Below, in pieces: positions 60,001 through 63,000 of a stretch of DNA of 64,000 nucleotides. This stretch comes from Escherichia coli. Its GTDB lineage: Bacteria; Pseudomonadota; Gammaproteobacteria; Enterobacterales; Enterobacteriaceae. The position numbers are program-made. The stretch lies in NCBI RefSeq assembly GCF_003018115.1, contig NZ_CP027457.1; one strand, written 5' to 3'. Each line of letters begins with the position of its first letter. Within the stretch, counting starts at the first letter, position 1.

Positions 60001-63000
60001 CACATTAAGCGGACGAATACGTTTACCCACCTTATGGGTAAATAAAGTTCCACCGATCACAATGAGCACAACGGTATAGACCATATACCCCTGGATATTC
60101 CATTCTGTTCCACCAACAGTGAATGAGAGCGTACCCGCGCTTTGCCAAAGAATAACGGTAAAGGTGATCAGCATGCTAAGTGACTGGATGAAGCCAAATG
60201 AAAGGCTGAGCGTTTTGCTGATCAGTAAGAGAATGTCTTCAGCGATACGTTGGTCAGGGTTATCTGTATTTTTATGCTCACCGTAGATCTGCGTGAAGTA
60301 GTAGTTTTTATCTGCAAACCAGCGATTAAGGTAGTAATCTGTTAACCATTCGCGCCAGCGAATAGTCAGTAGTTTAATTAACCATGTTTTGTTTACGGAT
60401 ATTAATACAAAGATCCCCAGCAGGGCAGGGAACCAAAGGACAAGCTGCCAAAGCTTATCGGTTTCTTTCTGGCTTAGCGCATTGAAAAAATCATTATTCC
60501 AGTCGTTTAACCAGACCTGAATTTTAACCACGCCAAGGATCATGGCGAGGATAATAATGATTAACAACACTGAAGTTTTATTATTCTTACGCAGCCAAAA
60601 GGGCTTCAGCAGACAGAGATACTTTGCTATCAACATACAAAACGTAATGGGAATGGTTATCATTAGCGAAAATTGATTGTGCCATCCAATGATTATCTAT
60701 GGCAATGATTTACTGATGAAATTTATTTAAGTGTCATTTAACAATATGAAATATATAGAAATTTTTAATTTTCAGTGGTTATGGTTATGCTATTGATAAT
60801 CAAGGGTATTGCTAATGCCCTGACGCATACCACGTATGCCAGGATTTTCGCAAGGGAAGATGATGATGACGACACACCCGACAGGAATTTATGTCGGGTG
60901 CTTTGTTAAGGTCATAAGACGGAGGCTAAGACTGGAGCTAAGAGGGCGTGTTATTAATTATTCTCCATTTGTTTTGCAACATCCATAATGTGATAAAGCG
61001 GTACTCTGTTCTTAGCTAACTCTACCATGGCGTTCATATAAGGTACCATGGTTGAAAAAAGGATTTTATAACCTTCGCAAAAATAAGAAACAGTCTCATT
61101 GTTTACTTTAGTAATACGATGCTTAGGACAACCGCCATTGCAGATAGGTTTATATGCACATTGCTGACATTTCGCTGAAATCCGTTTTTTTTGCGCTGTC
61201 AGTTGTACACTGTTCATCGTTTTGAGTTCAGATTTATTAATGTTTCCAATTTTGTACTGTGGATAGACAAAATGATCGCATTCATAAATATCTCCATTAC
61301 TTTCAACAACCAGATTATCCTTGCAGGACTCCTGGAAAATACAACTGGTATGCCCATTCCCCAAAAAACGGCTGACAAAGCTTTCAAACTGACGGATGAA
61401 AATTTCACCCACATCGTTTTTAACCCATTGCATAAAAATGGTTGACATAAACTTGCCATAAGCCGTGGGAGGCACAGAAAAATCAATGATACGGAATGTG
61501 TTCTCACTATGACCACTGAAATCAATATTCGGCGTCCCGGTTTCTAGCAATTCGATAAATTGCATATGTTTACTGCCGATAGATTTTAAAAAATGATAAA
61601 CCTCAAGAGGGTAATGGACATTAACGTTATTAATGACGGTTAACGTATTAAACTCTACTTGATATGATTTCAGACGCTCGATGGCTGCTATCACTTTTGC
61701 AAAAGTACCGTTACCTGAATTACTGCGTCTGTAACGGTCATGTAACTCCTGGGGGCCATCGATCGAGATACCAACCAGAAATTCATGTTCTTTGAGAAAG
61801 GCACACCATTCATTATTCAATAAAATGCCATTCGTTTGTAATGCATTAAAAATACGTTTTTGGCCTGCATAGCGTTGTTGATAGTGAATAACTTTACGGA
61901 AAAAATCCAGGCCAGCCAGAGTGGGTTCACCGCCTTGCCAGGTAAAATAGACCTGATTGCCAGACGCTGCGATATATTGTTTGATGAACTCTTTCAGAGT
62001 GCTGTCATCCATCCATTTTTCATGAGTAAACTGCGACTCTTTTTCAAGGTAAAAACAGTAATCACATTTGAGATTACATTGAAAACTGGAGGGCTTGGCT
62101 GTAACGTGCATCGCTATCTCGCTCAATAAGGCGGCGGAAAATTCCGCCGCATGAAGGTTTAGTTATTTCGCTTCGCTTAGTGCTTTCTTGATATTGTTAA
62201 ACTTCTCCTGATTTACCTCGCTAAGCGGTGGCTGGCTGCTGTCGATAAACTCTCTTACCACGCCTTGCATCTCTTTAACGACCTGCGGATTGGCGGCGGC
62301 AAGGTTATCTTTTTGCTGTAGATCCGTCAGTTTGTATAGACCTAACTGATTGTTTTCTACTGTATAGACAAGCGAATAATCGTTATTTCTCACCGTATAA
62401 GAGAATTGGCTTAAGTCCTCAGTGTTGGGGTTATGCGGGTAATCGTCTGACTGATGGCGAACAAATTTGTGGTAATTATCCCAGAATGGAATATTTTCCT
62501 CGTCAAACCAGTGAGAATAAGAGGTTATCCAGGTCAGATTTTTATGTGGCTCGCCTTGTTTCTTATCTTGCAACCAGGGCAGCAAGGAAACGCCATCCAG
62601 CTTAAGGTCTTTTGGAATGCTGATATCGGCTGCATCAAGAGCTGTCGGGTAGAAATCCATTGCGGAAATCAGCTTGTCATAATTACCGGGTTGAAGTTTT
62701 CCTTTCCACCACATAAACATTGGGGTGTGAGTACCGCCAGGATAGGTCTGACTCTTATAGCCTTTTTGCGCCCCGTTCAGCGGCAGAGGACCATCGATAA
62801 CCGCACCATTATCGGAGGTAAAGAGAATAATTGTATTGTCATACTGTCCGTTTTTCTTCAGTTGTTCGAGAATGCGTTTTACACCCTGATCAACAGAATA
62901 AACGGAAGCGTAGTAGTTATCTGCTGTTTGACTACCGGTATTAAATTGCTTCTGATATTGATCCGGTGCAGGATTATCATTTGGCAGGTGCGGAGCATTA

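Follow-up and report, generated by a model that had tools for sequence, protein, structure and literature searches.

Placement of the Fur operator of the yddA-yddB-pqqL operon in a 64-kb stretch of the Escherichia coli genome

We analyzed a 64,000-nt stretch of Escherichia coli DNA (contig NZ_CP027457.1 of assembly GCF_003018115.1; hereafter, the window, with positions counted from its first letter) for Fur-binding sites at the head of the yddA-yddB-pqqL operon. A 25-bp cluster of two overlapping sites was located at 60646-60670, and we hold with high confidence that it is the already-described Fur operator of this operon. The assignment draws on the sequence match together with its rarity, its conservation, published in vivo occupancy by Fur and published Fur-dependent expression. 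Fur control of yddA-yddB-pqqL itself is already known and has been documented repeatedly since 2003-2007; the contributions of this analysis are the precise placement of the operator in the window, the finding that the interval flagged in an earlier reading of the sequence alone (60664-60760) holds no significant box, and a hint that the yddA start is mis-annotated in K-12. The operon is a fitness factor of uropathogenic E. coli in systemic infection and is thought to import and digest a host iron protein, and its control by Fur and iron is thus biologically relevant.

Scoring with a Fur weight matrix, the check proposed along with the sequence-only reading, was carried out with a symmetric 19-bp matrix of 9-1-9 architecture, which was built from 21 published E. 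coli sites with the yddA site left out. The training centres and footprints were taken from Chen et al. 2007 (PMC2189734, Tables 3 and 4), converted from U00096.2 to NC_000913.3, and the corresponding DNA was aligned as 19-mers; the conversion is validated by the exact agreement of most training sites with their converted coordinates. The resulting consensus is AATGATAATCATTATCATT, the information content is 18.7 bits, and in leave-one-out evaluation the 21 training sites score between 8.5 and 27.0 bits (median ∼19.7). The two sites of the cluster are as follows.

60646-60664, no strand assigned: primary Fur site, a 9-1-9 inverted repeat centred at 60655 (AATGGGAATGGTTATCATT), 19.1 bits.
60652-60670, no strand assigned: second, overlapping Fur site centred at 60661, 8.7 bits, in 6-bp register with the primary site.

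The primary site is the top matrix match in the whole window, and its score is on par with those of experimentally validated Fur sites. The cluster covers the annotated yddA ATG (60663-60661). Chance levels were obtained from dinucleotide shuffles of the window, from shuffles of the local 350 bp and from shuffles of the interval 60664-60760. Sites of at least 19 bits are expected at a rate of 0.02 per dinucleotide-shuffled window, and 19.1 bits was attained in 2 of 5000 shuffles of the local 350 bp. The classical consensus GATAATGATAATCATTATC is matched at 15 of 19 positions at 60649-60667, the sole match of this quality in the window.

Published predictions and in vivo occupancy converge on the same position. 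Chen et al. 2007 (PMC2189734) described a yddA cluster of 19.6 bits with two walkers in 25 bp at U00096.2 coordinate 1577358, at +8 from the start, which maps to window position 60655; the cluster was reported to overlap the translational start, lying between the promoter and the start codon. The box quoted by Subashchandrabose et al. 2013 (PMC3855560), GGGAATGGTTATCATTAG, corresponds to 60649-60666. Huja et al. 2014 detected this box with a PRODORIC matrix, and Beauchene et al. 2015 listed yddAB-pqqL as Fur-bound and RyhB-enhanced. In chromatin immunoprecipitation (ChIP) data of the ChIP-exo type, Gao et al. 2023 (PMC10164565) found Fur peaks at yddA in eight of nine E. coli strains, of which we mapped MG1655, W3110, CFT073 and 042 onto the window. 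For MG1655, mapped with a verified shift of +1976 (yddA is 1577657-1579342 in NC_000913.3), footprint P47 (1577347-1577374) falls at 60644-60671 and footprint P46 (1577233-1577267) at 60530-60564; the peak centres of W3110, CFT073 and 042 fall at 60652, 60651 and 60650, respectively. The mapped yddA peaks are present under iron-replete conditions only. The Sakai coordinates refer to a different record version and were checked only via the constant distance of 25449 bp to the adhP peak. A ChIP-seq study of CFT073 (Banerjee et al. 2020, PMC7157518) placed a Fur peak of height 657 with its centre at 1765013, 1 nt from the ATG at 1765014, which maps to 60662. Thus, all mapped ChIP-exo and ChIP-seq centres from the four strains lie at 60650-60662.

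The assignment of P46 and P47 to yddA takes into account a shift in the published table. In the MG1655 sheet of Dataset 2 of PMC10164565, starting at P37, the gene and transcription-unit columns run one row off the peak coordinates (tonB is missing), and the printed sheet labels the adhP peak as yddA, leaves one of the two yddA peaks blank and names the other 'uxaB'.

The published yddA Fur site (PMC2189734, PMC3855560, PMC10164565, PMC7157518) is therefore the identical object, with the same sequence, operon and start-codon position (19.6 vs 19.1 bits). There is no biological difference between the two; the only difference concerns the placement given in the sequence-only reading (60664-60760 vs 60646-60670).

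Published expression data agree with repression by Fur. In the RNA sequencing of PMC10164565, the operon genes are derepressed in fur mutants of eight strains with log2 fold changes of +3.1 to +6.9; for yddA these amount to +3.06 in MG1655 and +6.93 in W3110. In the CFT073 fur mutant, yddA, yddB and pqqL are derepressed ∼52-, ∼56- and ∼42-fold (Banerjee et al. 2020, PMC7157518). Across published data, expression of the three genes is 8- to 120-fold higher when fur is mutated. Subashchandrabose et al. 2013 (PMC3855560) demonstrated by reverse transcription PCR that yddA, yddB and pqqL are co-transcribed, and reported that their transcripts are up more than 30-fold in urine and are elevated in a fur mutant. 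At the protein level, PqqL is increased by bipyridine and in urine (Grinter et al. 2019, PMC6793856). The proposed link of yddA-yddB-pqqL to iron limitation through a Fur box is borne out by the matrix scan together with published Fur ChIP, fur-mutant expression and bipyridine induction of PqqL, and an absence of any iron or Fur dependence of yddA is contradicted by the published derepression and by the chelator-induced protein.

The window, MG1655, W3110, CFT073, Sakai and 042 share the same Fur box sequence. The box of Escherichia sp. E1V33, a member of a cryptic clade, carries three substitutions (AACCATT to AATAGTT) and keeps a score of 18.9 bits. A 91-bp segment spanning the box and the promoter is present at no less than 95% identity in 4610 of 5426 complete E. 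coli genomes. A scan of genome contigs for YddA relatives retrieved only Escherichia sequences (96-99% identity), one 52%-identical homologue from an Enterobacteriaceae metagenome-assembled genome and remote matches, and phylogenetic footprinting is shallow due to this scarcity of relatives beyond Escherichia. The 52%-identical homologue, whose gene is followed by an 819-aa open reading frame (ORF), is preceded by a Fur box of 22.9 bits (TTTGATAATGATTATCGTT), 52 nt before its ATG, so Fur control appears to go with the yddA gene family and not just with the sequence studied here. A 14.7-bit Fur-like neighbour lies 6 bp from the 22.9-bit box of the same operon.

By analyzing the region upstream of the annotated ATG and the 5' part of yddA, we placed the operator relative to a predicted promoter and to a further Fur-like site.

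60676-60705, minus strand: predicted sigma-70 promoter of yddA, with a -35 element TTGCCA (60705-60700), an 18-nt spacer, a TG (60684-60683) and a -10 element CACAAT (60681-60676).
60550-60568, no strand assigned: intragenic Fur-like site in yddA (GATAATAATGATTAACAAC), 6.6 bits; 10.0-12.6 bits in other Escherichia lineages.

In a consensus scan, TTGCCA-18-TGgCACAAT is the sole promoter-like -35/-10 pair upstream of yddA on the minus strand. Both TTGCCA and TGgCACAAT are invariant across six Escherichia sequences, and it is this invariance of the hexamers and the TG, not the pattern match, that supports the predicted promoter. From its position, transcription of yddA would start near 60669. The Fur cluster (60670-60646) begins 6 bp after the predicted -10 element and would span approximately +1 to +24 of the predicted transcript. 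As for the suggested overlap with the yddA promoter, the site is just downstream of the predicted -10 element and over the predicted transcription start, not across the -35/-10 region.

These positions suggest the following scheme of regulation. Under iron-replete conditions, Fe(II)-Fur dimers occupy the two overlapping 19-bp sites, 60646-60664 and 60652-60670, and would cover the predicted transcription start, the initial ∼25 transcribed bases and the annotated ATG. The bound Fur would probably block open-complex formation and initiation, or promoter escape, by steric hindrance. When iron is scarce or fur is deleted, Fur leaves the sites and yddA, yddB and pqqL are co-transcribed. The weaker intragenic site ∼100 bp downstream (60550-60568), which is occupied in K-12, may reinforce the repression; it overlaps the MG1655 footprint P46 and matches the 7-1-7 consensus at 12 of 14 positions (60552-60566), joint best in the window.

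Several observations weigh against this scheme. In CFT073, dipyridyl or added iron left the transcript levels unchanged, unlike the deletion of fur (PMC3855560), suggesting that signals besides iron may contribute. RyhB also increases the transcript levels (Beauchene et al. 2015). Chen et al. 2007 (PMC2189734) reported no overlap of the yddA cluster with a strong sigma-70 promoter. The promoter-like match is not above chance when taken alone (2 found in the region, 2.5 expected), and a literature search for a measured yddA transcription start or a reporter fusion returned none, so that the geometry of box and promoter is a predicted one.

The main rival explanation places the yddA promoter further upstream, in the AT-rich tract at ∼60710-60780, and has Fur at 60646-60670 act as a roadblock in a longer 5' leader. 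It agrees with the location of the cluster 'between the promoter and the translational start' in Chen et al. 2007, free of overlap with a strong promoter, and with the composition of the tract 60700-60780, which is 74% A+T, well conserved and rich in -10-like hexamers. However, the consensus scan gave no second -35/-10 pair there on the minus strand, and a 50- to 120-fold repression would be large for a simple roadblock. The alternative -10 element GATAAT (60697-60692) was rejected: Escherichia sp. E1V33 does not retain its essential A2, and TTGCCA and TGgCACAAT show no variation. We regard an upstream promoter as rather unlikely. A chance origin of the similarity from AT-rich intergenic DNA, with no direct control of the cluster by Fur, has a negligible probability: both the region and the Fur motif are AT-rich, and the matches within 60664-60760 are at chance level, but the 19.1-bit site is far above what the local composition yields, and the in vivo occupancy in several strains and the strong derepression in fur mutants refute this reading for 60646-60670.

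The remaining rival concerns the interval 60664-60760 itself, which comprises precisely the 97 bp ahead of the annotated start codon of yddA (A at 60663) and shares 7 bp with the Fur cluster. The best Fur-like sequence inside it is the following.

60688-60706, no strand assigned: Fur-like sequence of 4.9 bits, with the half-site GATAATCATT at 60688-60697 on the minus strand.

Fur may be supposed to make its functional contact at this half-site, which lies between the predicted -35 and -10 elements and is probably what prompted the sequence-only reading. The half-site would then serve as the main operator, or else prolong, across the promoter, a Fur array that grows upstream by polymerisation from the start-codon box. 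All 10 nt of the half-site agree with the core of the classical consensus, it sits in the spacer of the predicted promoter, and the centre of the 19-mer (60697) is 42 bp, or seven times 6 bp, from the centre of the main site, in the hexamer register. Nevertheless, 4.9 bits was attained in 782 of 2000 shuffles (39%) of this AT-rich interval, the full 19-mer matches the classical consensus at only 12 positions (145 such matches in the window), and the positions between it and the main box score below 3 bits. Two cryptic Escherichia clades have GACAAT and GTCAAT in place of the GATAAT part of the half-site, with invariant flanks, and the ChIP-exo footprints (60644-60671 and 60530-60564), like all peak centres, exclude it. 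A functional role of this kind is improbable, and the half-site could be an auxiliary contact at most. Searches for a near-consensus box wholly within 60664-60760 by the matrix, the classical 19-mer, the 7-1-7 consensus and the ChIP-exo consensus gave nothing beyond chance. Hence, a strong Fur box does exist near the head of yddA, as the sequence-only reading had it, but it was mislocated by about 20-40 bp, and the real box abuts the lower edge of the interval. The repeat search of this region additionally revealed an exact 8-nt direct repeat, CAATGATT, at 60687-60694 and 60703-60710 (16 bp apart, flanking the predicted -35 element), which may be a chance product, as its spacing does not suit the 6-bp register of Fur; otherwise only weak AT-rich repeats were found.

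The position of the main operator relative to yddA depends on the start codon. The true start of YddA is probably Met10 (ATG at 60636-60634), and the annotated codons 1-9 (60634-60663, minus strand) are then likely to be non-coding. In a comparison of seven Escherichia sequences, the variable codons are nonsynonymous in 4 of 4 cases among annotated codons 1-9 vs 7 of 52 among codons 10-150; at the latter rate, 4 of 4 would arise by chance roughly once in 1000 by our own estimate. The N-terminus of the 52%-identical homologue aligns with Met10, and the RefSeq annotation of Sakai starts YddA at the same residue (552 aa). No Shine-Dalgarno sequence was found ahead of either the Met1 or the Met10 ATG. 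If Met10 is the true start, the operator would lie in a ∼33-nt leader (the initial ∼25 transcribed bases), directly behind the extended -10 element and not on the start codon. It can be speculated that such a leader operator acts with the intragenic site, by looping or as a double roadblock, to provide the tight 50- to 120-fold repression, and that a second, non-iron signal acting on the AT-rich tract 60700-60780 explains the lack of response to the chelator in CFT073; we offer this combined model as a doubtful one.

The yddA operator shares its main features with the canonical Fur operators at iron-uptake promoters of E. coli (entC, fepA-fes, fhuA, cirA, sodA and others), namely the 9-1-9 repeat AATGATAATnATTATCATT, overlapping sites spaced by 6 bp, iron-replete-only occupancy and repression. 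It differs from them in two respects. The canonical operators lie across the -35/-10 region, whereas the yddA cluster is downstream of the predicted -10 element, over the predicted start and the annotated ATG. In addition, yddA has a second occupied site ∼100 bp inside the gene.

The ORFs of the operon are contiguous and on one strand, and bring together an inner-membrane transporter, a TonB-dependent receptor and an M16 peptidase. They belong to the final 12 kb of the window, where gadB, pqqL, yddB, yddA, ydeM and ydeN are all encoded on the minus strand, pqqL being the terminal gene of the operon. A small divergent gene borders the regulatory region.

58978-60663, minus strand: yddA, ORF for a fused ABC transporter with an SbmA/BacA-like membrane domain and an ATPase (Pfam PF06472, PF05992, PF00005).
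56568-58940, minus strand: yddB, ORF for a FusA-like TonB-dependent outer-membrane receptor (Plug domain, PF07715).
53728-56523, minus strand: pqqL, ORF for a FusC-like periplasmic M16 metallopeptidase (PF00675, Peptidase_M16, and PF05193, M16_C).
60866-60988, plus strand: yneP, 40-aa small protein (MG1655 annotation; Pfam YneP PF23696, E = 3.7e-28).

This makeup agrees with the earlier description of the cluster as to the receptor, the peptidase and the presence of an ABC transporter. The label of 'exporter' is not established, since the Pfam architecture of YddA (ABC_membrane_2/SbmA_BacA and ABC_tran) includes an SbmA/BacA-like membrane domain and the analogous FusD protein is hypothesised to import. 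The Fus system of ferredoxin uptake in Pectobacterium has the same three-part cluster (the FusA receptor, the FusC M16 protease and the FusD inner-membrane transporter) and iron-dependent expression; YddB is a structural analogue of FusA, and PqqL of FusC (PMC6793856). As a point of difference, deletion mutants had no growth defect under iron limitation in LB (PMC6793856).

The yneP gene is divergent from yddA and overlaps the final 35 nt (3' end) of ydeM; a 9-bp GC-rich hairpin is located at 60875-60900, within the 5' part of yneP. An Rfam scan of 60400-61100 returned only sub-threshold noise from eukaryotic snoRNA families. The 601 bp around the Fur feature are matched at 90-100% identity in 5349 of 5426 complete E. 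coli genomes. The yddA promoter, yddA, yddB and the 5' part of pqqL are missing from approximately 14% of complete E. coli genomes (∼740 of 5349). One such genome was checked, Ecol_542 (NZ_CP018970.1, 2588-3511; window equivalent ∼55600-60950), and there ydeM is joined to the truncated pseudogene of an M16 peptidase. JARKOR010000108.1, a contig binned as 'Candidatus Nanosynbacter', carries an E. coli yddA at 99% identity whose upstream DNA is identical, and is almost certainly a mis-binned E. coli contig.

Other Fur-like sequences were noted elsewhere in the window. The second-best matrix match (37733-37751, 17.8 bits, ATTGATAGGTATTATTATT) lies in the osmC-bdm divergent intergenic region, where no Fur ChIP-exo peak is listed for MG1655. 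A 15.4-bit match (AATAAGAAACAGTCTCATT) is located at 61082-61100 within the ydeM coding region. Finally, the MG1655 ChIP-exo peak P45 upstream of adhP maps to ∼35195-35222, where the matrix score is just 5.5 bits (centre 35204); this site is occupied by Fur in published data and has a weak motif.

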